A DNA stretch of 64,000 nucleotides, from positions 3,354 to 67,353 of the forward strand of contig JAVBUT010000008.1 of assembly GCA_031555055.1 (NCBI GenBank), given 5' to 3'. Of this stretch, positions 3,020 to 60,848 are shown piece by piece. Both the position numbers and the translations under genes were made by a program. The notes beneath the pieces were generated by a model. The model had not been told where the DNA came from. It made no database searches and saw only the letters and a list, made by a program, of their open reading frames with translations. Position 1 is the first letter of the stretch. The number at the start of each line of letters is the position of its first letter. The stretch is from Alphaproteobacteria bacterium. GTDB taxonomy: Bacteria > Pseudomonadota > Alphaproteobacteria > Rs-D84.

Positions 3020-4213
3020 ATGAAAAAATTATTGTTTGTTATTTTTTGTTTTTTGTCCCTTGGTCCAATCCAATTGCGTGCCGATGACGTGGCCGCCGTA
3101 AAAAAAACGGAAAAGCCGCATTATAAATCCTGGTCCGAGATTTCTTTTATCGATCCCGTCGACGGGTATTTTGACATGAGCGAGTTTATAATCAACGCCC
3201 ATGGTTTTGTCCCGATCCCGGTAATAATTACCGAGCCCGCAGTCGGCGGATTCGGAGGCGGAGTTGCGCCGGTGTTCATAGACCCTAAACCGCCTGTTGA
3301 AAAAGATGGCAAGATGTATCCGCAAAGTCCGGACATAACTTTGCTGGGTGGGATTTATACGCTTAACAACACATGGGCTTTGGCGGCGGGTCGCATCGGC
3401 ACGATCCAGGAATACGGACTGAAATACAAAGTGCTGGGCGCATATGCCGACGCGAATCTTGATTTTTACACCCCGCCTGAAAGCATTGTCCCGGACCATA
3501 AAATGGAATTCAATATCCAGGCAGTCCCGGTTTATCTGTATCTGGCCAAGCAACTGCACGATCCGCGTTTTTCAGTCGGTATGGACTATGTGTATTCTTG
3601 GATTGATCTGAAACCGAAATTCGCGGACCCGAATATTCCGGATTCATGGGAACATGACTTTAAACAAAACATGTCGCTGATCGGCGGTGTGTTCGAATTC
3701 GATAATCGCGATAATACATTCACACCCAACAGCGGTATAAAGATCGCTGTAAATGCGCGTTTTTCCGACACTCTGTGGGGTGGCGGTTCTGACTTTCAGA
3801 AAACCGAAGAATCCATGTACTGGTATCTGCCGGTGACAGATTCCTGGATCACCGCATTGCGTTTGGAAACCCAGCAGATGTTCGGTGACGCACCGTTTTA
3901 TCTAAAGCCTTTCATTGATATGCGCGGTGTTCCAATGGCGCGATATCAGGGTGATTACACCGCGCTGGCCGAGATCGAGGAAAGATACGATTTCGGAAAA
4001 TCAAAGCGTTGGTCCGTTGTCGCGTTCGGCGGCCTGGGCAAGGCCTTTGACGAATTCAACCAGTTCGATGACGCGAAAACAGTGTACAGCTATGGCGCAG
4101 GATTCAGATATCTGCTGGTCAGGAAACTGGGGATACGCGTCGGCATTGACGTTGCGAACGGCCGCGATGGTCCGGCATGGTATATCGTATTCGGCAGCAA
4201 CTGGGCCAGATAG
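3020..4213 (+). CDS. Omp85/surface-antigen-family outer-membrane beta-barrel without POTRA domains
   Basis: Signal peptide MKKLLFVIFCFLSLGPIQLRA. C-terminal GAGFRYLLVRKLGIRVGIDVANGRDGPAWYIVFGSNW resembles the Bac_surface_Ag barrel end. Confidence 0.6.
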   Translation: MKKLLFVIFCFLSLGPIQLRADDVAAVKKTEKPHYKSWSEISFIDPVDGYFDMSEFIINAHGFVPIPVIITEPAVGGFGGGVAPVFIDPKPPVEKDGKMYPQSPDITLLGGIYTLNNTWALAAGRIGTIQEYGLKYKVLGAYADANLDFYTPPESIVPDHKMEFNIQAVPVYLYLAKQLHDPRFSVGMDYVYSWIDLKPKFADPNIPDSWEHDFKQNMSLIGGVFEFDNRDNTFTPNSGIKIAVNARFSDTLWGGGSDFQKTEESMYWYLPVTDSWITALRLETQQMFGDAPFYLKPFIDMRGVPMARYQGDYTALAEIEERYDFGKSKRWSVVAFGGLGKAFDEFNQFDDAKTVYSYGAGFRYLLVRKLGIRVGIDVANGRDGPAWYIVFGSNWAR

Positions 4214-11834: not shown

Positions 11835-12299
11835 TTAATCCGACAGAACGTGCGCGGTAAATATCCCGTGGTTATGCAACAGTCCGGTGACGGCGCTGTG
11901 ATCGTCCAAGGCCAGATAGAATTTGTATCCTTGGGCTTCCAGCTCGCGCACTTTTGCGACTTTGAATTCCGCGGTTGTGCCCGGCCAGTCGTGCGTTTTG
12001 CAAAAAACTTTCTTTTTTACATTCGGCAGCAATCCGTCCAAGAAATTTTCAACTTTTTCCAATCCCATGGCCCATCGGCCGGTGATAAATACAATCGTAA
12101 AATCACGCCCAAATGTTTCCAAAACGCGCACGATGTTTTCATTAGGCGCGCCAAACCGGTCAAAGTTCGCGCCAACCGTATCTAAAACTTCCTTTGGTGT
12201 GTTGCGCGTATCCTTTGGATCATAGCCCGCGATCGTAACCCCAAATTTCTTGGTTACGACGCCGTCAATGTCACAGAAAATTGCAGGAATTTGATTCAT
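11835..12299 (-). CDS. HAD-superfamily phosphatase (small, capless type)
   Basis: CDIDGVV (DxDxV), VFITGR, ALDDH motifs. Confidence 0.6.
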   Translation of the reverse strand: MNQIPAIFCDIDGVVTKKFGVTIAGYDPKDTRNTPKEVLDTVGANFDRFGAPNENIVRVLETFGRDFTIVFITGRWAMGLEKVENFLDGLLPNVKKKVFCKTHDWPGTTAEFKVAKVRELEAQGYKFYLALDDHSAVTGLLHNHGIFTAHVLSD

Positions 12300-12300
12300 A

Positions 12301-12363
12301 TCAGTGTCAGTGTCAGTGCCAGTGGAAGTGTCAGAAAGACATTAATCCACTGACACTGACACT
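12301..12363. repeat. Periodic hairpin, CAGTGY 6-mer family
   Basis: TCAGTGTCAGTGTCAGTGCCAGTGGAAGTGTCAG ... CACTGACACTGACACT. Lies between the HAD gene start and the rpoC stop. Confidence 0.85.
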
Positions 12364-12368
12364 TTTCG

Positions 12369-21258: not shown

Positions 21259-21274
21259 TTCATTTACCTTTTTT

Positions 21275-21340
21275 TAGTGACAGTGACAGTGACAGTGCCA
21301 GTATTTTGGGATTTCCCCACTGACACAGACACTGACACTA
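21275..21340. repeat. Periodic hairpin, GTGACA/CAGTGY 6-mer family
   Basis: TAGTGACAGTGACAGTGACAGTGCCAGT ... CCACTGACACAGACACTGACACTA. The right arm contains the rplJ TAG stop. Confidence 0.88.
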
Positions 21341-21820
21341 ATTATTTTTCTTTCCATATTCCGCAGAAACACGGGCCAAGCGTGATCCAGGTTCGACCAA
21401 GATACGCGCGATTGTGCCGCGAATTTCCAACAGTGATGGAAGCTTGGACAACTGCATAACGCCGTCTGCATTTAAAAGATCAGCATCCATTTTTCCGCCG
21501 ACGATCAACAGTTTCGGATTAGTTTCTGCAAACTTTGCCAAAACCTTGGTAACAGCCAACGCGTCTGTCGCGATTGCCACAGCCGTCGGACGTTTCATCA
21601 ATGCGGATACAGGTGCGAATTCGGTGTCATTTACCGCCAATTTAAACAAGCGGTTTTTAACGACCTTGAATACAGAAACGAACGGGCGCAATTCCTTGCG
21701 CAGTCCTTCGAACTGTTTCACTGTCAAACCGTCGTTTTCAATAACGAAAACACCGTTTGCATCTTTTAATGACGACTGTAACGTTGAAATCAAATCTGAT
21801 TTTTCTTCACGTCTCATCAT
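21338..21820 (-). CDS. rplJ: 50S ribosomal protein L10
   Basis: MMRREEKSDLISTLQSSLKDANGVFVIENDGLTVKQFEGLRKELR. Start at MM with RBS AGGTGA; the longer ORF start lies inside a repeat. Confidence 0.9.
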   Translation of the reverse strand: MMRREEKSDLISTLQSSLKDANGVFVIENDGLTVKQFEGLRKELRPFVSVFKVVKNRLFKLAVNDTEFAPVSALMKRPTAVAIATDALAVTKVLAKFAETNPKLLIVGGKMDADLLNADGVMQLSKLPSLLEIRGTIARILVEPGSRLARVSAEYGKKNN

Positions 21821-23218: not shown

Positions 23219-23232
23219 TTTAACACTCCGTG

Positions 23233-23378
23233 TTATTTCTGATTTATGATTTCTGATTTCTGATTTGAATCAGACCATAATCATCATCAGGATTAGAGTT
23301 TGTGGTGCGATGTTGGCACATCTTCCACGCTTTTTTCGATCTATGAAATCAGAAATCCGAAATCATAAATCAGAAATC
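23233..23378. repeat. Periodic hairpin, TCTGATT 7-mer family, about 34-nt arms with about 70-nt loop
   Basis: TTATTTCTGATTTATGATTTCTGATTTCTGATTT ... GAAATCAGAAATCCGAAATCATAAATCAGAAATC. Fills the nusG/rplK gap. Confidence 0.88.
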
Positions 23379-23379
23379 T

Positions 23380-24459: not shown

Positions 24460-24620
24460 AGGGATCAGGAATCAGTCAAAAGGAATCAGGAATTAGTAGG
24501 GGCGCATATTTGCGCCCTCTTTATTTTTGACTGGATTGCCACGTCGCTGACGCTCCTCGCAAAGACGGATTTGTGCTTAATCGCTAATTCCTATCGACTA
24601 ATTCCTAATTCCTGATTCCT
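24460..24620. repeat. Composite: TGATTCC-family periodic hairpin with two other palindromic elements nested in its loop
   Basis: Arms at 24460-24496 and 24582-24620. REP TAGGGGCGCATATTTGCGCCC at 24495-24517. GACTGGATTGCC..CTCGCAAAGACGG element at 24529-24568. Confidence 0.85.
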
Positions 24621-24686
24621 AAAAAAAAGGCTTGCGCCGGCAATGGCTTTTTTTCTACAATCGGTTAACAGGAGAGATTTTGCAGT

Positions 24687-25357: not shown

Positions 25358-25508
25358 GGGATCAAAATGAAAAATGAAAAATGAAGAATGAAAAATTAGA
25401 TTCATTTATCATGACATTTTTCTCAAGACAAGGAAACAGGTAAACAAAGATGAACAAACTAATTAAATCATTTTTCATTCTTCATTTTTCATTTTTCATT
25501 TTGATCCC
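25358..25508. repeat. Perfect 39-bp inverted repeat (AATGAAA 7-mer family) with a 73-nt loop holding the virB9 RBS and ATG
   Basis: GGGATCAAAATGAAAAATGAAAAATGAAGAATGAAAAAT (25358-25396) is the exact reverse complement of 25470-25508. Confidence 0.95.
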
Positions 25509-29887: not shown

Positions 29888-29892
29888 GACAA

Positions 29893-29990
29893 AGTCAATA
29901 GTCACTAGTCAATAGTCAATAGTCATTAGTAATTTAACTATTAAGCACCGCTAACGACTATTGACTATTGACTAGTGACTATTGACTAAG
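29893..29990. repeat. Periodic hairpin, GTCAATA 7-mer family
   Basis: AGTCAATAGTCACTAGTCAATAGTCAATAGTCATTAGT ... ACTATTGACTATTGACTAGTGACTATTGACTAAG. Confidence 0.9.
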
Positions 29991-29998
29991 GACTGTAA

Positions 29999-35152: not shown

Positions 35153-35989
35153 CTACAATTTTTCTGCAATTTCTGCGAACTTTTCCGGTGATAGCTCTTC
35201 GGCACGCTCACGTCCGCTCAGACCAAACTGTGACCAATCGACGCCGGGCATAATTCCGCGAATCATCTTGCGCCGCTGGCCGAACAGTTTCGCGGTCAAG
35301 GCTTCGATTTTTTCTAATTCCTGATTCCTGGCTGCTGATTCCTTGGGCACAATCTGCACAACAGCACTTTGCACCTTGGGCGCGGGAAAGAATGCGGTGT
35401 TCGGAACATTGAATAAAATCCGTGCGTCCGCGACCATTGCCGTCAAAACCGCCAAGCGACCGTAATGTTCGTCACCGACGCGCGCGACAATACGCATCGC
35501 CACTTCGCGTTGGAACATCAAGGTCAATGACGTGATTCGTGATTCGTGATTCGTGATTCGTTCTGCCATAATATGCAACCACCTTATCAACAGTTCCGTA
35601 CCAACATTGTACGGCAGATTGGAACAAACCGCCCAGTTCCCGGTTCCGAATTCCCAGTCCCCATTTTTCAACGCATCGCCAAAAATAATTTCCAAGCGAC
35701 CGTCGGCGGCCATGGCGATTTTTTCCAATATCGGCGCAGTGGCTTTATCCTTTTCAATCGCGATTACATGTTTTGCACCCGCCAATAATAAAGCGCGCGT
35801 CAAACCACCCGGGCCCGGCCCAACTTCGACCACGGTAATATTTTCAATATCCGGCACGGCGCGTGCGATCTTGCCCGTCAGATTCAAATCAAACAGGAAA
35901 TTCTGGCCGAATTGCTTTTTCGGTTCCAACCCCGCGTCACGCATCATTTCCGACACCGGCGGCAATGATTCTAATTGTTTATTTACCAT
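35153..35989 (-). CDS. rsmA: 16S rRNA (adenine1518/1519-N6)-dimethyltransferase
   Basis: KKQFGQNFLFD, VVEVGPGPGGLT, SNLPYNVGT, LMFQREVA, FFPAPKV. Carries two in-frame 7-mer repeat tracts. Confidence 0.9.
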   Translation of the reverse strand: MVNKQLESLPPVSEMMRDAGLEPKKQFGQNFLFDLNLTGKIARAVPDIENITVVEVGPGPGGLTRALLLAGAKHVIAIEKDKATAPILEKIAMAADGRLEIIFGDALKNGDWEFGTGNWAVCSNLPYNVGTELLIRWLHIMAERITNHESRITSLTLMFQREVAMRIVARVGDEHYGRLAVLTAMVADARILFNVPNTAFFPAPKVQSAVVQIVPKESAARNQELEKIEALTAKLFGQRRKMIRGIMPGVDWSQFGLSGRERAEELSPEKFAEIAEKL

Positions 35990-37277: not shown

Positions 37278-38399
37278 TTAATGAAACACATAGCTGTCAA
37301 TGCCGGTGGCGCTGGCATTATTTTTTAATTTTTGGGCCGATCCTTCGGACAATCCGTTTGCGCGCACGCGAAACATCCCATTGGGCGCCTGCTCTATCAT
37401 TGTGCTGACCCCCAGTGCATTTTTAACTTTATTCTGCTGGGCGGTGGCGGCCGATTTGGATGAAAATGCGCCGAACTGGACCCCGGAACCGCCGGATTGC
37501 ACCGTGACCGGCACGGGTGTCTTTTGCGGCGGTGGCGCAGAATAAGCTTCTTCATCAGTTTCGTCATCATAAGAATATTTCTGCAACGTCGGTGCGGCGC
37601 CAACCTTGACCAGTTCGAATCCCTTGTTCAGCATGCGGACAGACGCCGCCGCGCGAACATCCTTGGTGGACGCGCCCAGGACGACGGACATCAAGTGTTT
37701 GTTTCCGCGCCGCGCCGTCGCAACCAGCGAATATTTCGACTTGTTCGTGTATCCGGTTTTCATACCGTCACAGCCCGGATAAGTTTCCAGCAACCGATTT
37801 CCGTTATTGTATGTTTTGCCATTATACGTCCATGACTTGATTCCGAAATATTTCCAGTATTGCGGAAAATGTTTATACACTGCCATAGACAGCAACGCGA
37901 TATCGCGCGCCGTCGACAAATGATCATCGTCCGGCAGACCGGACGAATTCGCAAAGTTTGTCTTCGACAGTCCGATTTCGTTCGCGACATGCGTCATCAG
38001 CGACGCAAAGTTTCCTTCTTTGCCACCCTTTAAATTTTCGGCCAGCACGCGCGCAACGTCGTTCGCGCTGTGCACGGCAAGCGCCTTGATCGCGTCTTCG
38101 ACCTTGATCTTTGATCCCGCGGCCAGCCCCAGTTTAACCGGCGACGCATTCGCGGCGGATTGCGACACGATCAGATAATCATCCAAGTGCAAGCGTCCGT
38201 GTTCCAGCGCGTCGAACGTCAGATACAGCGTCATAATTTTGGTCAATGACGCCGGATAGTTCAGATCGCTGGCGTTTTCCTGGTACAGTACCTGGCCGGT
38301 ATCCATATCCGCGACCAAGGCCGCCCGATAATCCGCAGCATGCGCCACAGAAATGAAAAATGAAAAATGAAGAATGAAAAATGTAATTAGTTTTCTCAT
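37278..38399 (-). CDS. D-alanyl-D-alanine carboxypeptidase (S11, PBP5/6-like) with C-terminal SPOR domain
   Basis: SLTK, HSAN and KTGYT active-site motifs. Tail VQFGAFSSKSAATAQ...MFRVRANGLSEGSAQKL. Signal peptide MRKLITFFILHFSFFISVAHA. Confidence 0.88.
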   Translation of the reverse strand: MRKLITFFILHFSFFISVAHAADYRAALVADMDTGQVLYQENASDLNYPASLTKIMTLYLTFDALEHGRLHLDDYLIVSQSAANASPVKLGLAAGSKIKVEDAIKALAVHSANDVARVLAENLKGGKEGNFASLMTHVANEIGLSKTNFANSSGLPDDDHLSTARDIALLSMAVYKHFPQYWKYFGIKSWTYNGKTYNNGNRLLETYPGCDGMKTGYTNKSKYSLVATARRGNKHLMSVVLGASTKDVRAAASVRMLNKGFELVKVGAAPTLQKYSYDDETDEEAYSAPPPQKTPVPVTVQSGGSGVQFGAFSSKSAATAQQNKVKNALGVSTMIEQAPNGMFRVRANGLSEGSAQKLKNNASATGIDSYVFH

Positions 38400-38485
38400 G
38401 AACAAAATGATACAAAAAATTCGACACACGGGTCAATGGATAAAACAGTATTAATTTTTCATTCTTCATTTTTCATTTTTCATTT
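38351..38485. repeat. Perfect 32-bp inverted repeat (AATGAAA family) with a 71-nt loop holding the dac start codon
   Basis: AAATGAAAAATGAAAAATGAAGAATGAAAAAT (38351-38382) is the exact reverse complement of 38454-38485. Confidence 0.95.
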
Positions 38486-38486
38486 A

Positions 38487-38508
38487 AAAACGCCCCGTGG
38501 GGCGTTTT
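38487..38508 (-). terminator. Terminator downstream of pyk (bidirectional shape)
   Basis: AAAACGCCCC-GTG-GGGCGTTTT with A/T runs on both sides. Confidence 0.65.
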
Positions 38509-45895: not shown

Positions 45896-46753
45896 TTACT
45901 CCCCAATTTTTATTTCTGTGCCACGCAAACCATTTACAAACGATTTCCAGTCCATCGGTTTTTTCCCAGCGGGCTGGATACGTATGATTTCAAGGCTTGG
46001 GCACCCCCCCCCGCAAGGAGGGAGTTTATCCGCATAACTTAATTTTGTCTCAAGAATCTTTACATCAATCCCGTTGATTTTTGTTCGGCCACCGATTGAA
46101 CGGACCTGGTTATGAATTTGCTGCGGTGATTTTGACCAGTCGATTATCGTATCTTCTTTGGAAAATTTATGCGTGTATGTCGGCGTGCCGATTTGTTCGA
46201 TTGTCGAATATATTTTCGGATTCTGTAAAAAACCGGACAGCATTTCAGTAGACACAGATGCAACATTTTTTTCCAAATCGACAATCGTATCGTTTTCACC
46301 GATTTTAATTTTCCGGCACATATAGATCGGGCCCGCGTCAACGTCACGTGTTAATTTCATCAGGCATACACCCGTGTCACTATCGCCGTTTAATATCGCA
46401 GACAGCATAGGCGCCGGCCCGCGATACTTTGGCAACAAAGACGGGTGAATATTTATCGTCGGCGCCGCGTTTAGCACATCATCTTTTAATATAACACCGT
46501 ATGACGCCACAACGATATAGTCAATGGATTTATGATTTATGATTTCTGATTTATGATTTAAATCAGAAATTTTTGTATAAACCGGAATGTTTCTAGATTC
46601 GGCCCAGATGTGCACAGGTGATTTTTGCAGTTCCATTTTACGGCCGGCGGGCTTTGGCGCGCGCGTAAAGACCGCCACAATATTGTGTTCGTTTGCCGCA
46701 CGATCAAAAATCGGCACAACCCAATCGTTCGTGCCCATTAGAATTAATTTCAT
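45896..46753 (-). CDS. fmt: Methionyl-tRNA formyltransferase
   Basis: MKLILMGTNDWVVPIF, INIHPSLLPKYRGPAPM, and a C-terminal domain. Start taken downstream of the repeat-encoded extension. Confidence 0.9.
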   Translation of the reverse strand: MKLILMGTNDWVVPIFDRAANEHNIVAVFTRAPKPAGRKMELQKSPVHIWAESRNIPVYTKISDLNHKSEIINHKSIDYIVVASYGVILKDDVLNAAPTINIHPSLLPKYRGPAPMLSAILNGDSDTGVCLMKLTRDVDAGPIYMCRKIKIGENDTIVDLEKNVASVSTEMLSGFLQNPKIYSTIEQIGTPTYTHKFSKEDTIIDWSKSPQQIHNQVRSIGGRTKINGIDVKILETKLSYADKLPPCGGGCPSLEIIRIQPAGKKPMDWKSFVNGLRGTEIKIGE

Positions 46754-46754
46754 T

Positions 46755-46837
46755 ATCGTGACTCGTGACTCGTGACTCGTGACTCGTAAAACGAAAATAT
46801 TATCTTTCGAATCACGATTCACGAATTACGAATCACG
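46755..46837. repeat. Periodic hairpin, GTGACTC/GTGATTC 7-mer family
   Basis: ATC(GTGACTC)x4GTAAAACG ... CGAATCACGATTCACGAATTACGAATCACG. The right arm contains the def TGA stop. Confidence 0.9.
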
Positions 46838-50048: not shown

Positions 50049-53000
50049 TTATTTTTTCTTTTTATTTCCGATGCGTTCCATCAGCGTAAATACCGCCGGC
50101 GTCAAAAAGAACGTCCAGAACAGCGACGCCAATATACCGCCGATGATAACGGCGCCCATGGCGACCTTGGTGTCGTCCGGCGCCCACAGCTGGGGCAGCA
50201 ATCCCGCAACAACCGCAACCGTCGCCATGACCAGCATGCGCTTTTTATCAATGAACTGTTCCCACAACGCTTCGCGTGCCGGTTTACCGGCTTTCATTTC
50301 TTCCAGCGTCGGTTCCAGAATCAGAATGTTCGTGCTGACCGCCAGACCCACCAGCATAACCAGCGACATCATCGCCGCGATATTGATCGTACCACCAACC
50401 AGAAACAGCAGAATGAACACACCCGCAAAGCTGGTCAAAATCGAAGTCACAATCGTGAATGGGTGACGCAAGGAATTCATGATCGCCGCCAGCGCCATAA
50501 ACGTCAGTATCGTCGCCAACAGGAATGCGTTTCCGATTTCGCCTGTCGATTCCGCCTGCATTTCGGACATGCCGCCGAACGACGCATAGTATCCTTGTTC
50601 CCAGTCGATCTTTTTCAATTCACTTTGTATTTTCGCCTGGACCGGACCGATCGTGGATTTGCCGATATTAATGTCGATTTCGGTTATGCGATTCTTGTCA
50701 ATTCTGCGGATTGTCGGACTGGCGGTTGTCGGTTTCAGTTCGCCCAGTTCCGACAACGCGACCAAGCCCTTGGCCGTGCCGACATAAACGGAATCAAACA
50801 TCTCGTAGTTTTTATATTCCGGCGCCAGTTCCAAGACGATTGGATATTCGTCGCCATTTTCCTTGTACTTGTACGTATCGTTTCCGTACAGCGCGGTGCG
50901 CAGCGCGCTGGCCGCAGTGGCGTTGCGTACACCCCACAATTTCATTTTTTCATCGCTTGGGACAAATTTTAATTCACGGCCCGGTTTTTGCGACGCCGGC
51001 ACTGCGGTTTGGATTTCCGGAATATTGTTCAGCATGTCCAGAACCTGTGTGGCATACGCTTCGCGTTTTGCGTCGTCTTCACCGTTTATGTTCATGATCA
51101 GATCGTTTGATACTGCGCCGGACATGCCCGCGCCGGCGCGAACCTGGGTTTCGACACCGGGTATGTCGGCGATTGCCGGCACGATTTCGCGCGCGATCTG
51201 CTTGTCTGATTTACTGCGATCGGACCGATCGACCAGACCGACTTTGATGTTAATGTTCTGGACGCCACGATCGCCGATCTTGACCGACACGAAATCAATG
51301 CCGTCGATTTTGGACAAACGGTTTTCAATATCAGCCGCAATAGATTCGGATTTTTTAAACGTTGATCCGGCATCGCCACGCGCGAATATGTTTATTTCGT
51401 TCACGTCTGTTGATCCGGCGAATTCGTTCCCGACCCAGCGCATAGGAATCAATGACAAGACCAGCACTGCGGCGGCCACGCCGACCGCCTGCCACGGCTT
51501 GTTTATTTGCCAGTCATAAAACTTTCGGAACCATGATAATGAATCGGTTTTTTTATCTTTCTTTTTGACTGATTCCTGATTTTTTGTTCCTGGTTTTTTG
51601 CCTTTTAAAATCTTTGCGATCATCATCGGTGTCAATGTAAAGCTGAACATGGATGAAATCAAAACCAGATACACAACCGACAGACCGAACTGTTTCATAA
51701 ACTGGCCCGCGATTCCGCCCATAAACGCCAGCGGCAAGAACACGACAACGTGCGTCGCGATCGTCGCGAATATTCGAACCGCGACTTTTTTGGTACCGGT
51801 CACCGCCGCGTCTTCGGGGGTGTAACCCTGCTCTATCAGACCCAATGCCGATTCGATCAGTACGATCGCGTCCGTAATCAGCGTCCCCAGCGCCGTCGCA
51901 ATCGCCAACAGCGTCATCGCGTTGATTGTAAATCCGGACGCGTCCATCCAGAAAAATCCCGCAACCAGCGACGCCGGAATCATGACACCCGCAATGATTG
52001 TCGTGCGCCAGTTGCGCGTAAACACGATCAATGTCAAAACCGTCAGCGCCAACCCCAGAATAATGTCACGCACAGTCGTATTTGTTTCATGCTGGATCGC
52101 GATGGACGAATCAGAAATTATCTGCATGGCGACCGGATTTTCTGTTCCGGTTTTTGCAAAATGATTCTGCATTTCTTTTTCGAATGCCGGCATTTTCTGA
52201 CGCAGTTCTTTGGAAATTTTTATCGCGTTTCCGTCCGACGCCTTGACAACCGAAGTTATCACAACCGGCTGGCCGTTCAAACGCGCGCCTGTGGTTTTGT
52301 CCAGCGCGGAATCTTCGATACGCGCAATATCGCGCAGACGCAGCACGGCGCCTTCGGGTGTTGTCATCTGCAAATTTTTAATATCGTTTACGGAATTGAA
52401 TTCGCCGACAAACCGGACGACGTTCGAACTGTCCCCCAGTTCCAGTTTGCCACCAGGCACGTTCAAATTATGCGCGGCGATTGCGGCCACGACTTCATTG
52501 ATCGCCAGTCCGCGCGCCGCCATTTGTTCCGGATTCAGATACACGCGTATCGCGCGTTTGTCCCCGCCGTACACAGACACGCTGGCCACGCCGTTGATCC
52601 CTGTGATCTGGCGCGACAAAACGTCATCGACATAATGTTCCAGTGTCCGGACATCCGCACCCGACAGCACGATGTCCATAACCGATTCCTGTAACGGATT
52701 CAGCTTTTCGACAACCGGTTTTTTCAGATCGTCCGGGAATTCGCCTTCGATTGATTCCAACTTTGCCTTGATTTCCGACGCCTTGTCGTTGACATTGACC
52801 CCCAGGTTGAATTCGGCCATTACATATCCGCCGTTTTCATACGCCTGGGATGTGATTTTTTTAATACCGGAAACTTCGGACATTACGTTTTCAGTCTTTT
52901 TGATCACCTGGGATTCGACTTCGTCCGGACTGGCGCCGGGATAGATAAAGCTGGCCGTGACCATGGGAAAATCAATCGCCGGCGTGCGTTCTATATTCAT

Positions 53001-53087
53001 TTTCGGATACGCTACAATCCCCAGCACCACCCACAGCAGCACGAACATAACCGTTGTAATTGGATTTTTTACGAAAAATTTTATCAT
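50049..53087 (-). CDS. RND efflux transporter permease (AcrB/AcrD/AcrF family)
   Basis: 1012 aa. MIKFFVKNPITTVMFVLLWVVLGIVAY..., with the 12-TM and two-large-loop layout. Confidence 0.92.
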   Translation of the reverse strand: MIKFFVKNPITTVMFVLLWVVLGIVAYPKMNIERTPAIDFPMVTASFIYPGASPDEVESQVIKKTENVMSEVSGIKKITSQAYENGGYVMAEFNLGVNVNDKASEIKAKLESIEGEFPDDLKKPVVEKLNPLQESVMDIVLSGADVRTLEHYVDDVLSRQITGINGVASVSVYGGDKRAIRVYLNPEQMAARGLAINEVVAAIAAHNLNVPGGKLELGDSSNVVRFVGEFNSVNDIKNLQMTTPEGAVLRLRDIARIEDSALDKTTGARLNGQPVVITSVVKASDGNAIKISKELRQKMPAFEKEMQNHFAKTGTENPVAMQIISDSSIAIQHETNTTVRDIILGLALTVLTLIVFTRNWRTTIIAGVMIPASLVAGFFWMDASGFTINAMTLLAIATALGTLITDAIVLIESALGLIEQGYTPEDAAVTGTKKVAVRIFATIATHVVVFLPLAFMGGIAGQFMKQFGLSVVYLVLISSMFSFTLTPMMIAKILKGKKPGTKNQESVKKKDKKTDSLSWFRKFYDWQINKPWQAVGVAAAVLVLSLIPMRWVGNEFAGSTDVNEINIFARGDAGSTFKKSESIAADIENRLSKIDGIDFVSVKIGDRGVQNINIKVGLVDRSDRSKSDKQIAREIVPAIADIPGVETQVRAGAGMSGAVSNDLIMNINGEDDAKREAYATQVLDMLNNIPEIQTAVPASQKPGRELKFVPSDEKMKLWGVRNATAASALRTALYGNDTYKYKENGDEYPIVLELAPEYKNYEMFDSVYVGTAKGLVALSELGELKPTTASPTIRRIDKNRITEIDINIGKSTIGPVQAKIQSELKKIDWEQGYYASFGGMSEMQAESTGEIGNAFLLATILTFMALAAIMNSLRHPFTIVTSILTSFAGVFILLFLVGGTINIAAMMSLVMLVGLAVSTNILILEPTLEEMKAGKPAREALWEQFIDKKRMLVMATVAVVAGLLPQLWAPDDTKVAMGAVIIGGILASLFWTFFLTPAVFTLMERIGNKKKK

Positions 53088-53662
53088 TATCTTACCTTTG
53101 CGCCTTCATCAATTTGTGAAATTATTACGACATCGCCGTCGGACAGACCGCCGGATACAACAGCATTCTCGGAATCGTCGGACACAACCGTGACATTGCG
53201 AAACGACGACGTACCATTATCATCAACCATGACACGATTGTCGACAACCGCATATACCGGAACAAAATATCCGATGTATTTGCTTTCGACGAATACAGGC
53301 CCGTCCGACACACCGGATGTTTTGACAATGCACATGCCAGAATCCAGGTCTATGCGGTCGGACACTGATATGATTTTTCCGCCACGCTGGCCGTTTACAA
53401 CTTCTTGGCCGACGCGGAATTTTCCAATACGCGCACAGGACACGAATGCGCGGTTATTCTTGACCGCCATCGGTTCGCGCAGAACACCGGTCTTTTTATT
53501 GACCGTGATTTTTTCCACCGCCGCGCCACGCGCATCGGAATCGCGCACAGGATTGTATACAACGCGCGCGCTTTCGCTTGCGATCACGACGATGCGGAAA
53601 ACGACCCAGCCAATCGCCACAGCCGCCAGCACCGCCCACATTAATTTGCTTTTTTTATTCAT
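53087..53662 (-). CDS. Short periplasmic adaptor-like protein (191 aa)
   Basis: N-terminal TM anchor. Sits between the tolC-like and RND genes with a TAATG overlap. About half the usual adaptor length. Confidence 0.5.
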   Translation of the reverse strand: MNKKSKLMWAVLAAVAIGWVVFRIVVIASESARVVYNPVRDSDARGAAVEKITVNKKTGVLREPMAVKNNRAFVSCARIGKFRVGQEVVNGQRGGKIISVSDRIDLDSGMCIVKTSGVSDGPVFVESKYIGYFVPVYAVVDNRVMVDDNGTSSFRNVTVVSDDSENAVVSGGLSDGDVVIISQIDEGAKVR

Positions 53663-53668
53663 GATTTT

Positions 53669-54997
53669 TTACTCGCCCAGTTTTTTTACAGATTCCGCAG
53701 ACATTAAGATATTGTACTTTGCATTCATCAGCGCCATGTCCAGTTGTGACAGTGCGGATGAAACTTCGGACAGTTCAACGGCGGACGTCTGGCCGGCCGC
53801 AAATCGGTCCGACGATATGTTGTATGCCTTTTGCGCCAATGCCCGTGCGTTTTCCAACGCCGCCAGGTTACCGCGCAAATGTTCATACTTTTTTACCGCA
53901 GTGTTATATTCTTCGGTTTTGATTTTTTTGGATTTGTCCAGGTCCTGGCGCGTCGCTTCGGCATTCATGGCTTCTATCGTGCCTTGGGCGCGATTCATTC
54001 CGCCGTCAAAGATCGGAACTGTCATGGCCAGACCCCAGTATGCAGACTGTGATCCGGATGTGTCGAACATATGTCCAATATCGTCACCCATCGAAACAAA
54101 GTTATACGACGCCATCGCGGCCAGCGTCGGATAGTTTCCCGCACGTTTAGATCGGGCGTTTGATTCGTACATCTTTACCTGCATGTCCAGCATATCCCAT
54201 TCCGGATTTTTGGTCAACCGGCCCGCGGTGATCGAATCGAATTTTTCCGGCAGTTCGTCGGTCAAATTCAGCTCTTCATCAGTTTCGATTCCCGCCATGA
54301 TTTTCAGCATGCGGTGCGCGGTGTCGCGATTGAACTGCGCATCCGACAAATTGATTTCCTTGGTCGCGATATCGGATTCCAGCTTTATCAAATTGCTGCG
54401 GTTTGCGCGCCCGGCCGATGTCAGCTTTTTACGCGCGGAAACAGCATCCTGTAACGATTTTTCTTGGATTGCAACCAGACCGTCTGTCATTTTCGCCGTC
54501 CAGTACAGATTTGCCGCGGCATAGCGGACTTCGCGCTTTGTGATGTCGGCGCCTTTTTCAGACATCTTTACAGCGCTGCGCATTCCGTCAACTGCGTTTC
54601 CGATTTTTCCGAATGTGTAAATCGGCTGGGTGATTGTGGCACCCGCCATAAAGATATTGTTCGGGATCGTTATGTTGTTGATGTTCACCTGGCCCTGGGT
54701 CGCGTCAATGATCAGGCCACCCAGCGCCGGGGGCAGATCGACACCCATCGGATCACCGGGTTTTTCAACGTTCACCAGATTCATGTACTGGGCACTGCCT
54801 TCGATTTTAAACCAGCGGTTCGCATTTGCGGAATCCAATCCGGCTTGTGCTTTTTTCAGATTCGCGTCCGCTTTTTTAATATCATGGGATTCCTTGGCGA
54901 TCTTGTCAACCGCCGCATTGAACGTCAGGTCCATCGCATTTACTGCACCGATGGCCGACACTGACACTAACACTGGCACTAACACTAATTTACGCAT
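53669..54997 (-). CDS. TolC-family outer-membrane efflux protein
   Basis: Two OEP-type repeats (LKKAQAGLDSANANRW..., LQDAVSARKKLTSAGRANRSNL...). Signal peptide MRKLVLVPVLVSVSAIGAVNA. Confidence 0.85.
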   Translation of the reverse strand: MRKLVLVPVLVSVSAIGAVNAMDLTFNAAVDKIAKESHDIKKADANLKKAQAGLDSANANRWFKIEGSAQYMNLVNVEKPGDPMGVDLPPALGGLIIDATQGQVNINNITIPNNIFMAGATITQPIYTFGKIGNAVDGMRSAVKMSEKGADITKREVRYAAANLYWTAKMTDGLVAIQEKSLQDAVSARKKLTSAGRANRSNLIKLESDIATKEINLSDAQFNRDTAHRMLKIMAGIETDEELNLTDELPEKFDSITAGRLTKNPEWDMLDMQVKMYESNARSKRAGNYPTLAAMASYNFVSMGDDIGHMFDTSGSQSAYWGLAMTVPIFDGGMNRAQGTIEAMNAEATRQDLDKSKKIKTEEYNTAVKKYEHLRGNLAALENARALAQKAYNISSDRFAAGQTSAVELSEVSSALSQLDMALMNAKYNILMSAESVKKLGE

Positions 54998-55478
54998 TTA
55001 CGATCTCCATTTTTTTTAATATTTCATTCATTGTTTGAACCGCCTGGGTCAACCTGGATTCATCCGCGACGCTGATGTCCGAAAACAGCGTCGCAATACC
55101 TTTGCGGAATTTTTCCAGTACACGTCCCACTTCGCGACTGCCGGCCGGCGTCACGGAATACCAAGTATTGCGGCGGTCATCCTGGTCAACGACACGCGCG
55201 ACCATTCCGTCACGTTCCAGCTTTTTGAACATCGCGCACAACGCCGGCGCAGTTATGCATTCGCGGCTGGCGATATCTTTCAACTTGGCGCGTCCGCCGA
55301 CATGCAGACGAACCAGCGCGGCCATTTGTAATTTGGTATATTTGGAAAATTTCGAAGGATCAACTTTTAACCGATCGGCCAAACGCCCCAGGATAAAGAC
55401 ATTTTCTTCGATCAGATGTATGAAATCTTTTTGAACCATTTCGTCATCCTTTGATTTATTGTTTCGACCATTAATCAT
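54990..55478 (-). CDS. MarR-family transcriptional regulator
   Basis: LQMAALVRLHVGGRAKLKDIASRECITAPALCAMFKKLERDGMVARVVDQDDRR. Confidence 0.85.
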   Translation of the reverse strand: MINGRNNKSKDDEMVQKDFIHLIEENVFILGRLADRLKVDPSKFSKYTKLQMAALVRLHVGGRAKLKDIASRECITAPALCAMFKKLERDGMVARVVDQDDRRNTWYSVTPAGSREVGRVLEKFRKGIATLFSDISVADESRLTQAVQTMNEILKKMEIVNA

Positions 55479-55990: not shown

Positions 55991-56065
55991 TTTTATACAG
56001 AGCAGATAATATCTACCCCTACAACCTGTCCCGCCCACGGCGGGGAAGTGAATGGAAAAATCAAA

Positions 56066-56584
56066 ATGAGCAGACAAATACAAATCCGCCGCGGCACAGC
56101 GGCACAACACCAATCATTCATCGGGGCGATTGGTGAAGTAACAATGGACATCGATACCAAGACACTGCATGTGCACGACGGCGTGACGCCGGGCGGAATC
56201 CCATTGGCACGGCGCGACGAAATCCCGGAAAACACCGGCGGCGGCACAACCGAAATTCCAAACAACTATGACTTTGTCATCGAATCCGCGTCCGGTTTAA
56301 CTGGTACTGGATACACAAACGGATGGTATCGGAAATACAAATCCGGATGGACCGAACAAGGTGCATCCATATTACTCCAGGTCGGCGCCGACAGCACACA
56401 CGCCTTGCCGATTGCGATGTTGGATACAAACTATCAGGCATTGGTTGTTCCCGGGAACACCAGTGCGTCGAACATCCCCCAGGGCTGGGTTCGTCAAAGA
56501 AACACAGGATCAATAGTCGCCAGAGGCGCAACAAACGGCAGTAACCTGGCCAGCTTTTTGGTAATCGGAATACATGCTAATTAA
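56066..56584 (+). CDS. Phage tail-fibre-like protein (isolated)
   Basis: MSRQIQIRRGTAAQHQSFIGAIGEVTMDIDTKTLHVHDGVTPGGIPLA (tail-fibre/Mtd-type N-terminal motif). GWYRKYKSGWTEQG (tail-fibre C-terminal-type motif). Confidence 0.65.
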   Translation: MSRQIQIRRGTAAQHQSFIGAIGEVTMDIDTKTLHVHDGVTPGGIPLARRDEIPENTGGGTTEIPNNYDFVIESASGLTGTGYTNGWYRKYKSGWTEQGASILLQVGADSTHALPIAMLDTNYQALVVPGNTSASNIPQGWVRQRNTGSIVARGATNGSNLASFLVIGIHAN

Positions 56585-60533: not shown

Positions 60534-60848
60534 TTATTTACCGCACTTGTACATATAGACCTTGTGGCCGATGTAATCATTGCTGCCCAGTACCATGCCG
60601 CCATAGCTATAGTTGACTTCCTTGGATATGCGCAATGTGTCGCCACCCTCACCCGCCGTGCGATTGCGGACATAGTTCAATGATTCTTCGCGATTCATAT
60701 TATATCCGGTTGTATCCAGATCATCCAACAGTTCGCACCCCGACGGTTTTGAATCAACGATTTTCACCGCCATGCCGGCCGGCGTTTGTGCTGTGGTCGT
60801 ACATGCCGCCAGTGCCAGTGTCAGTGACAGTGTCAGTACGGTTTTCAT
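60534..60848 (-). CDS. Small lipoprotein (DUF4156-like)
   Basis: MKTVLTLSLTLALAAC lipobox. CELLDDLD...NYVRNRTAGEGGDTL. ATGA overlap with the upstream gene. Confidence 0.65.
   Translation of the reverse strand: MKTVLTLSLTLALAACTTTAQTPAGMAVKIVDSKPSGCELLDDLDTTGYNMNREESLNYVRNRTAGEGGDTLRISKEVNYSYGGMVLGSNDYIGHKVYMYKCGK

Follow-up and report, generated by a model that had tools for sequence, protein, structure and literature searches.

Why should the first codons of an outer-membrane efflux gene be written as a tandem repeat of six nucleotides? The question is raised by a tolC-like gene in a 64,000-nucleotide stretch of an alphaproteobacterial genome of the lineage Rs-D84 (assembly GCA_031555055.1, contig JAVBUT010000008.1; we call this whole stretch the window). 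An earlier note on this DNA had pointed to five copies of a hexamer in the signal-peptide codons and had suggested that gain or loss of units would change the length of the hydrophobic core. We find that the periodicity belongs to the DNA and that the peptide is dictated by the repeat. As to why the repeat is there, the reading we favor, with a probability of roughly 0.6, is that it belongs to a genome-wide DNA repeat system filtered by selection, and that variation of the signal peptide is not its purpose. The features at the center of the question are these:

53669-54997, minus strand: tolC-like outer-membrane efflux gene, 442 amino acids (aa), matching Pfam PF02321 (OEP) over two stretches with E=3.3e-39.
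54935-54997, minus strand: TolC signal peptide, 21 codons, with n-region MRK, h-region LVLVPVLVSVSAIGAV, c-region VNA and predicted cleavage before MDLTF.
54957-54988, minus strand: solo hexamer array TTAGTG TTAGTG CCAGTG TTAGTG TCAGTG, occupying tolC codons 4-13 and encoding LVLVPVLVSV.

Read on the minus strand, positions 54997-54935 give ATG CGT AAA TTA GTG TTA GTG CCA GTG TTA GTG TCA GTG TCG GCC ATC GGT GCA GTA AAT GCG, followed by ATG GAC, so that the first 23 codons translate to MRKLVLVPVLVSVSAIGAVNA and then MD; over 54957-54988 this is exactly what the earlier note had written. The five units run across 54988-54959, and Tandem Repeats Finder reports the tract at 54958-54988 both with a period of 6 (5.2 copies, 80% matches) and with a period of 12 (2.4 copies, 94% matches). 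The ten encoded residues are the first ten of the h-region, and because the array is read in its GTG frame, every second residue along it is valine. Outside N-termini, GTG supplies 25% of valine codons, TTA 10% of leucine codons, TCA 17% of serine codons and CCA 17% of proline codons. The probability that LVLVPVLVSV would be written in just these codons is 2.7e-8, which argues that the peptide follows from the DNA repeat.

The hexamer is not confined to tolC. Allowing at most two mismatches, the pattern CAGTGNCAGTGNCAGTG has 15 matches in the window, against 0.06 expected, and none of 100 shuffled sequences reaches 15. The matches fall at four loci only (12302-12364, 21275-21340, 54959-54987 and 60810-60838), so that NYAGTG arrays in the window make up two intergenic hairpins and two signal peptides and occur nowhere else. 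This bears out the earlier assignment of the TolC array to the same family as the hairpins at 12301-12363 and 21275-21340.

Could the pattern be a coincidence, a dipeptide repeat that only looks periodic, or an assembly error? Hydrophobic leaders are compositionally biased, one of the five signal-peptide array matches described below (3029-3056) is merely T-rich, and CAGTGN microsatellites are frequent in unrelated metagenomes. A metagenome scan for four copies of CAGTGN returned at least 120 stretches; the 80 that we examined have GC contents of 0.24-0.73 and almost no heptamer arrays, and we set them aside as unrelated microsatellites, not relatives. Against coincidence stand the codon probability and the four loci where 0.06 matches were expected. 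Against an artefact stands a Logan assembly of sequencing run SRR23967709 (L081, 8823 nucleotides; we number the assemblies compared here in this way), which was made independently and is 100% identical to the window across the array, and the tolC open reading frame is intact and full-length when compared with 1131 homologues. Coincidence and artefact are thus effectively refuted already. The organism has been seen in one sample, and its TolC protein cluster has one member.

A start codon downstream of the array would have removed it from the protein, and the earlier note had named this as the outcome that would undo its claim. The gene just upstream bears on the point:

54990-55478, minus strand: marR-family regulator, whose stop codon overlaps the tolC ATG (ATGCGTAA).

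The operon order is marR-tolC-membrane-fusion protein (53087-53662)-RND pump (50049-53087), a synteny kept in L081-L086; with two OEP repeats and neighboring membrane-fusion and RND pump genes, the protein has the features expected of the TolC/OEP family. A GGAGA ribosome-binding site lies 6 nucleotides 5' of the tolC ATG, and the overlap of the ATG with the marR stop is also present in L082 and L083. We aligned the N-termini from 80 homologous TolC loci, taken from species-representative genomes. Most begin M(R/K)K, and a conserved junction, A↓(M/L)DLS(L/F), follows 19-26 residues on, with which V-N-A↓M-D-L-T-F, a small-x-small cleavage motif, aligns. The 80 loci thus fix the start codon and the predicted cleavage site, the ribosome-binding site and the marR overlap confirm the start codon, and the true start does not lie downstream of the array. 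We rejected a start at Met22, with which this outer-membrane protein would lose its signal peptide. The peptide otherwise looks ordinary: a positively charged n-region (M-R-K) directly behind the start codon, then an h-region of 16 aa that is hydrophobic without interruption and has one proline in its middle, the V-L repeat having a Kyte-Doolittle mean of 4.0. The array starts 2 nucleotides past the marR stop, which is the first position without dual coding.

The other three loci of the hexamer family are as follows:

12298-12363, intergenic, directly 3' of rpoC: hairpin of inverted CAGTGN hexamer arrays, RNA fold -38.4 kcal/mol, z -6.95.
21272-21341, intergenic, between rplJ and rplL: hairpin of inverted CAGTGN hexamer arrays, RNA fold -30.9 kcal/mol, z -5.7.
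60807-60837, minus strand: lipoprotein signal-peptide array, a solo CAGTGN array read from the opposite strand as CTG-NCA and giving MKTVLTLSLTLALAAC.

The two signal-peptide arrays share the motif of the hairpins, not their structure. Neither has an inverted partner within 400 nucleotides, and RNA folding found no fold for either (z +1.1 for TolC and +0.1 for the lipoprotein), so a hairpin is ruled out for both; the two inverted arms of a palindromic element are present in the intergenic members of the family and absent from these two. The lipoprotein ATG overlaps the stop codon of the gene upstream (ATGA, 60845-60848), as the tolC ATG does that of marR, and because of these overlaps neither hexamer-leader gene has an intergenic spacer in which a repeat could lie.

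Within the TolC array, T replaces C in three of the five units, compared with two of 22 units elsewhere (Fisher p=0.03). The change gives TTA (leucine), an otherwise rare codon, in place of TCA or CCA (serine or proline), and from the sequence it looks like later tuning toward hydrophobicity.

How common are such arrays in the window? We ran a uniform scan with a minimum of four copies and of 80% matches, leaving out tracts of low complexity. It found seven arrays of period 6 and 25 of period 7 (32 in total) and none in shuffled sequences, while periods 4-5 and 8-12 remained at background; the window thus holds tandem arrays beyond what its composition predicts, the hallmark of long simple sequence repeats. 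The majority are inverted pairs at gene junctions, among them rpoB-rpoC, rplJ-rplL, rplA-rplJ, rplK-nusG, virB8-virB9, virB9-virB10, lspA-yidC and def-fmt. By location the census reads:

Non-coding DNA: 25 arrays, 2.2/kb.
First 75 nucleotides of nine signal-peptide genes: 5 arrays, 7.4/kb.
Other coding DNA (51.8 kb): 2 arrays (rsmA and fmt), 0.04/kb.

The earlier note had counted four signal peptides with repeat-encoded cores (here 54957-54988, 60807-60837, 25466-25505 and 38347-38387); all four hold, and the objective scan gives five. Within the window, and for nine hand-picked genes, periodic DNA is enriched in signal-peptide regions over other coding DNA (binomial p=7e-9, or 4e-7 without the T-rich tract at 3029-3056).

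The heptamer arrays that lie in coding DNA, with the hairpins to which two of them belong, are these:

25361-25505, plus strand: heptamer hairpin around the virB9 start, ~40-bp stem, -54.2 kcal/mol, z -9.3.
38347-38489, minus strand: the same heptamer hairpin, here enclosing the start of a gene for a DacC-like D-Ala-D-Ala carboxypeptidase, ~40-bp stem, -44 kcal/mol.
35527-35567, minus strand: CGTGATT-family array in rsmA/ksgA, encoding ERITNHESRIT in a variable segment.
46524-46562, minus strand: GATTTAT/GATTTCT array in fmt, encoding NHKSEIINHKS, an addition of 8 aa relative to L084 and L086.
3029-3056, plus strand: T-rich tract of period 7 in an Omp85-family signal peptide (MKKLLFVIFCFLSL), weak and borderline, which may be compositional rather than a true array.

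At virB9, the AAAATGA arm (25361-25400) lies behind the virB8 stop, the loop contains the ribosome-binding site and the ATG, and the TCATTTT arm (25466-25505) encodes the signal-peptide core FFILHFSFFIL. At dacC, the arm at 38347-38387 encodes FFILHFSFFIS, again with ribosome-binding site and ATG in the loop. Both arms are identical between the two genes, including the same variant unit, as is an adjoining ATGxxxAAACTAATTA, whereas the loops differ; this points to exchange at the DNA level between non-homologous genes. The six CGTGATT loci have the arrays alone in common: their flanks are unrelated, and we saw no target-site duplication. At the fmt array site, relatives encode N-H-K (AAT CAC AAG), a partial match to the unit.

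If selection filters repeats that arrive as DNA, then the arrays found in genes should be those whose reading frames are compatible with the local protein, and this frame rule is a prediction that can be examined directly. We translated the unit families in all six frames. For CAGTGN, two of the six frames are open and hydrophobic with every variant tested, GTG-NCA (Val-x) and, on the other strand, NCA-CTG (x-Leu); TolC reads the first and the lipoprotein the second. Among seven heptamer families, and leaving the weak T-rich tract at 3029-3056 out of account, TCATTTT, the family of the VirB9 and DacC leaders, is the only one that is stop-free and clearly hydrophobic on a strand. Neither strand of AATGTGC has stops, but its hydropathy is near neutral. 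For CGTGATT and ATTTCTG/GATTTAT, one strand is open but hydrophilic, and it is in that orientation that they occur in the variable segments of RsmA and Fmt. AGTCAAT and TAACAAT, which have stops on both strands, contribute no coding array to the window census. Every family that enters genes is thus read there in open frames suited to the protein segment concerned, as the filter predicts.

These observations suggest a mechanism. The genome would carry pervasive 6- and 7-nucleotide tandem arrays, mostly as inverted pairs that form long hairpins at gene junctions, and since array families are common to distant loci, they appear to have spread or been homogenized as DNA, not as protein. An array that lands in a gene would persist only if its strand and frame are stop-free and its residues are tolerated by the local protein segment; h-regions are among the most permissive coding segments because hydrophobicity alone is required of them. 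The TolC array would be a solo, five-unit member of the NYAGTG family, recent and frame-compatible, at a place where no intergenic space was available because marR and tolC overlap. The array would arrive first and tuning toward hydrophobicity would follow, an order of events that we infer together with effective neutrality, and the TolC peptide would come as a by-product of the repeat, with selection for a functional Sec signal filtering and refining it. Spreading may proceed by slippage together with template switching or gene conversion, or by some mobilizing enzyme.

Do relatives show the same pattern? The organism, an uncultured alphaproteobacterium of the gut, is related to Candidatus Enterousia and to metagenome-assembled genomes (MAGs) labelled 'Rickettsiales bacterium', and its best species-representative TolC match is 69% identical. 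Published work places Enterousia in order Rs-D84, in which genome size does not go beyond about 1 Mb. The closest TolC of the protein collection (L082, 83% identity, from the same run SRR23967709) has a non-repetitive leader, MRKFGMVSLLSMALMTPAFS, with an unrelated h-region and about the same length, which suggests that the array is recent and that it replaced sequence rather than adding to it. Expansion in situ from a local seed finds no backing at tolC, there being no convincing seed in the L082 sequence. In L083 (72%) the TolC leader contains an NTGGTG hexamer array (ATGGTA ATGGTG TTGGTG TTTGTG ATGGCG), and in L006 (69%) it contains 3.7 copies of the heptamer GCCTTAT. Across the four relatives compared codon by codon, the TolC signal peptide is 19-21 aa long with or without an array.

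Other genes show a similar recurrence of arrays with a change of unit. The DacC leader unit is TTCATTT in the window, TTTTTCA in L210, ATTCTTT in L208/L209 and ATTGTTC in L207; in three of four genomes the leader array forms a hairpin with an upstream arm that lies behind the pyk stop codon. For VirB9, the DNA of the window, L211 and L212 shows a heptamer-encoded leader with the same hairpin architecture, and the protein sequences of at least three more orthologues have signal peptides with a 7-aa period. In RsmA, four genomes use arrays, each with a different unit, to encode the segment between WLHxx and S(L/M)TLMFQREVA (window 35527-35567; L207 8698-8837; L208 13463-13600; L211 20487-20514), and the protein remains 277-292 aa long across them.

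Two further observations concern these genes. In L207 and L208, rsmA has a second, inverted array ~35 codons upstream, giving a hairpin within the coding sequence. In L208 (15921-15958) and L207 (9234-9261), heptamers also encode the membrane segment at the N-terminus of signal peptidase II (lspA), and the unit in L208 is ATTCTTT, as does the DacC leader of that genome.

Are the arrays instead contingency loci? On that account, slipped-strand mispairing would vary the number of units, with hexamers altering h-region length and export and the heptamers of virB9 and dacC, seven not being a multiple of three, switching expression by frameshift. The model is Neisseria opa, in which CTCTT repeats in the leader codons form a perfect tract that is hypervariable at ~1e-3 per generation and turns the reading frame on and off (PMC3960869). 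TolC resembles opa in carrying a short tandem DNA repeat in the hydrophobic signal-peptide codons of an outer-membrane protein (PMC3960869), and further points in favor are that the arrays lie in leader codons of envelope proteins, that they are denser in signal peptides than in intergenic DNA, and that unit composition differs between orthologous arrays, which implies turnover. Unlike the 5-nucleotide unit of opa, however, the TolC unit is 6 nucleotides, a multiple of three, and slippage would keep the frame; the arrays have 4-5 units and are imperfect, and TolC, with at most two adjacent identical units, has no long perfect tract. Its repeat family forms hairpins elsewhere in the genome, which also sets it apart from opa. 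Moreover, the same array families occur in two housekeeping genes, rsmA and fmt, where frequent loss of the reading frame would probably do harm, and the orthologous signal-peptide arrays that we saw are all in frame, in signal peptides of normal length (19-23 aa).

No variation was observed between the two assemblies of SRR23967709, which are identical. L208 and L209 are likewise 100% identical over 21 kb; each pair (L208/L209, L081/window) probably derives from the same underlying data and is therefore uninformative on copy-number variation. We consider contingency distinctly unlikely. The earlier proposal thus stands in part: a 6-nucleotide unit can indeed be gained or lost without a frameshift, but tuning of h-region length is not supported, the array being short and imperfect and the peptides of relatives spanning just 19-21 aa. 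Length tuning seems to us less likely than a filtered by-product.

A second possibility is that the units act at the level of nucleic acid, as recognition or structure elements in RNA or DNA, with their coding role secondary. They might be intercistronic processing or stability hairpins, present the translation start or bind a repeat-specific factor, the TolC array being a single-stranded copy behind the start. What speaks for it is position. L211 (Rickettsiales bacterium Gx481_bin12, 21.5 kb) is syntenic with the window over about 12-36 kb, and arrays or hairpins sit at eight junctions common to both, including rpoB-rpoC, rplJ-rplL, rplK-nusG, virB8-virB9, virB9-virB10, lspA-yidC and lspA-kefB, with mostly different units; at rplJ-rplL, for example, a hexamer hairpin in the window corresponds to an AAGAATT heptamer hairpin in L211. 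In several species, virB9 and dacC have their ribosome-binding site and ATG between the arms of such a stem, and in Beggiatoaceae, heptamer direct repeats just 5' of starts have been proposed as regulator sites (PMC4679880). Yet with arrays at most junctions in both genomes, the overlap with L211 does not reach significance (p=0.08), and we give it no weight as evidence. The TolC and lipoprotein arrays have neither a partner nor a fold. The sense strand is the more stable one in seven of 14 hairpins, so there is no G-U asymmetry and no signal of selection at the RNA level, and Rfam matches in the window comprise four tRNAs only. We regard a primary role in nucleic acid as unlikely.

Several points nevertheless weigh against a repeat system that is only filtered by selection. 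The array density in signal peptides exceeds that in non-coding DNA (7.4/kb versus 2.2/kb, p=0.02), where pure tolerance predicts no excess; arrays may be actively favored close to where exported genes begin. Hairpins whose leader arm helps to enclose the ribosome-binding site and ATG recur in three genomes for DacC and in three for VirB9, and such a conserved start-enclosing hairpin could be functional. Among 20 window proteins searched with Pfam there is no transposase or RAYT-like gene. In addition, the nine signal peptides were chosen by eye and by protein family (TolC, VirB9, DacC, Omp85, two lipoproteins and others), and the data comprise one 64-kb window plus about 90 kb from relatives. 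The density excess and the recurrence of start-codon hairpins also speak for a nucleic-acid role at the virB9 and dacC leaders, but neither applies clearly to TolC.

There is some room for a different reading, which we hold to be somewhat unlikely, in which the inverted heptamer and hexamer arrays of this clade of gut Alphaproteobacteria with reduced genomes are an inherited and actively homogenized system whose positions are kept while the units are replaced in concert. The kept positions would be operon junctions, the virB9 and dacC starts and a site inside rsmA. A leader arm would then do two jobs, forming half of a functional hairpin or a repeat that binds a factor while also coding for a signal peptide's hydrophobic core, and signal peptides, that of TolC among them, would repeatedly be born from repeats through some copying mechanism.

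How do these arrays compare with known repeats? Prokaryotic long simple sequence repeats with units of 5-11 nucleotides were described by Mrazek et al. (2007), according to the summary in PMC4679880, and TAACTGA heptamer repeats occur in Beggiatoaceae, Cyanobacteria and Bacteroidetes (PMC4679880). As portrayed in that summary, the likeness lies in a genome-specific excess of heptamers or hexamers that are mostly intergenic and near gene starts, in coding cases at protein margins, and in a preference for multiple-of-three units in coding DNA (PMC4679880). Beggiatoa, however, has a single unit in 169 direct-repeat sets with one indirect repeat (PMC4679880), whereas the present genome has several unit families, mostly in inverted pairs with stems of up to about 40 bp, and about half of the signal peptides in the window are repeat-encoded. 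Rickettsia palindromic elements are likewise dispersed palindromes in a reduced alphaproteobacterial genome that lie in frame within unrelated genes at function-compatible positions (PMC10969869). They are about 150-bp elements of unique sequence encoding a conserved peptide (PMC10969869), unlike the tandem 6-7-nucleotide units seen here, which have unconserved flanks and loops, show no target-site duplications that we could see and largely preserve protein length.

REP/REPIN elements are species-specific families of short hairpin repeats that occupy many intergenic sites, persist for long times and evolve in concert; RAYT transposases mobilize them. The window arrays resemble them as hairpin-forming repeat families at many intergenic sites. 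They differ in their tandem substructure and in the lack of a RAYT-like gene among the 20 window proteins noted above; to our knowledge REPINs have no tandem substructure, and we know of none that supply signal-peptide codons.

Leader repeats (opa, PMC3960869), heptamer excess near starts (PMC4679880) and in-frame palindromes (Rickettsia, PMC10969869) are therefore already known. The novelty lies in how such features come together here. Several unit families form long inverted tandem arrays at most gene junctions, roughly one export signal in two in the window is encoded by them, and they recur at the same coding sites in other species with different units. In the searchable literature we found no description of such repeats for Rs-D84 or Enterousia, nor of heptamer-repeat signal peptides.

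Signal peptides are a textbook case of a sequence constrained by physical chemistry and not by residue identity. Here that freedom appears to be exploited at genome scale: about half of the export signals in a 64-kb window are written by dispersed DNA repeats, and the same is seen, with different units, in uncultured relatives from the gut whose genomes are very small. The arrays may serve as a natural experiment on the minimal information that an h-region requires, and they suggest that selfish or structural repeats can rewrite coding DNA while protein length stays unchanged.

There is also a practical side, since arrays in these MAGs can break assemblies and can mislead start-codon calling. 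At the def-fmt junction (46752-46837) the window has an 80-nucleotide hairpin, where the def and fmt genes of relatives overlap or lie 27 nucleotides apart, and the L081 assembly ends inside this heptamer hairpin (at about window position 46760). Such arrays probably fragment assemblies across the clade.

A few further observations concern other parts of the window. Its most stable array hairpins (-53 to -64 kcal/mol) are those of 23231-23379 at rplK-nusG, 24460-24622 next to tRNA-Trp on the upstream side of virB8, and 29890-29994 on the downstream side of virB10. In the efflux operon, the membrane-fusion protein (53087-53662, minus strand) has just 191 aa, far fewer than typical AcrA-type adaptors; it has no Pfam match in our scan and a weak precomputed match to the C-terminal RND-MFP domain, and the short form is kept in relatives (187-196 aa). 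Lastly, a 178-aa open reading frame at 56048-56584 (plus strand), adjoining tRNA-Gln and tRNA-Glu, has at its N-terminus an Mtd_N domain (Pfam PF18454, E=2.6e-16), a domain of the major tropism determinant that belongs to the diversity-generating retroelement of a Bordetella phage.

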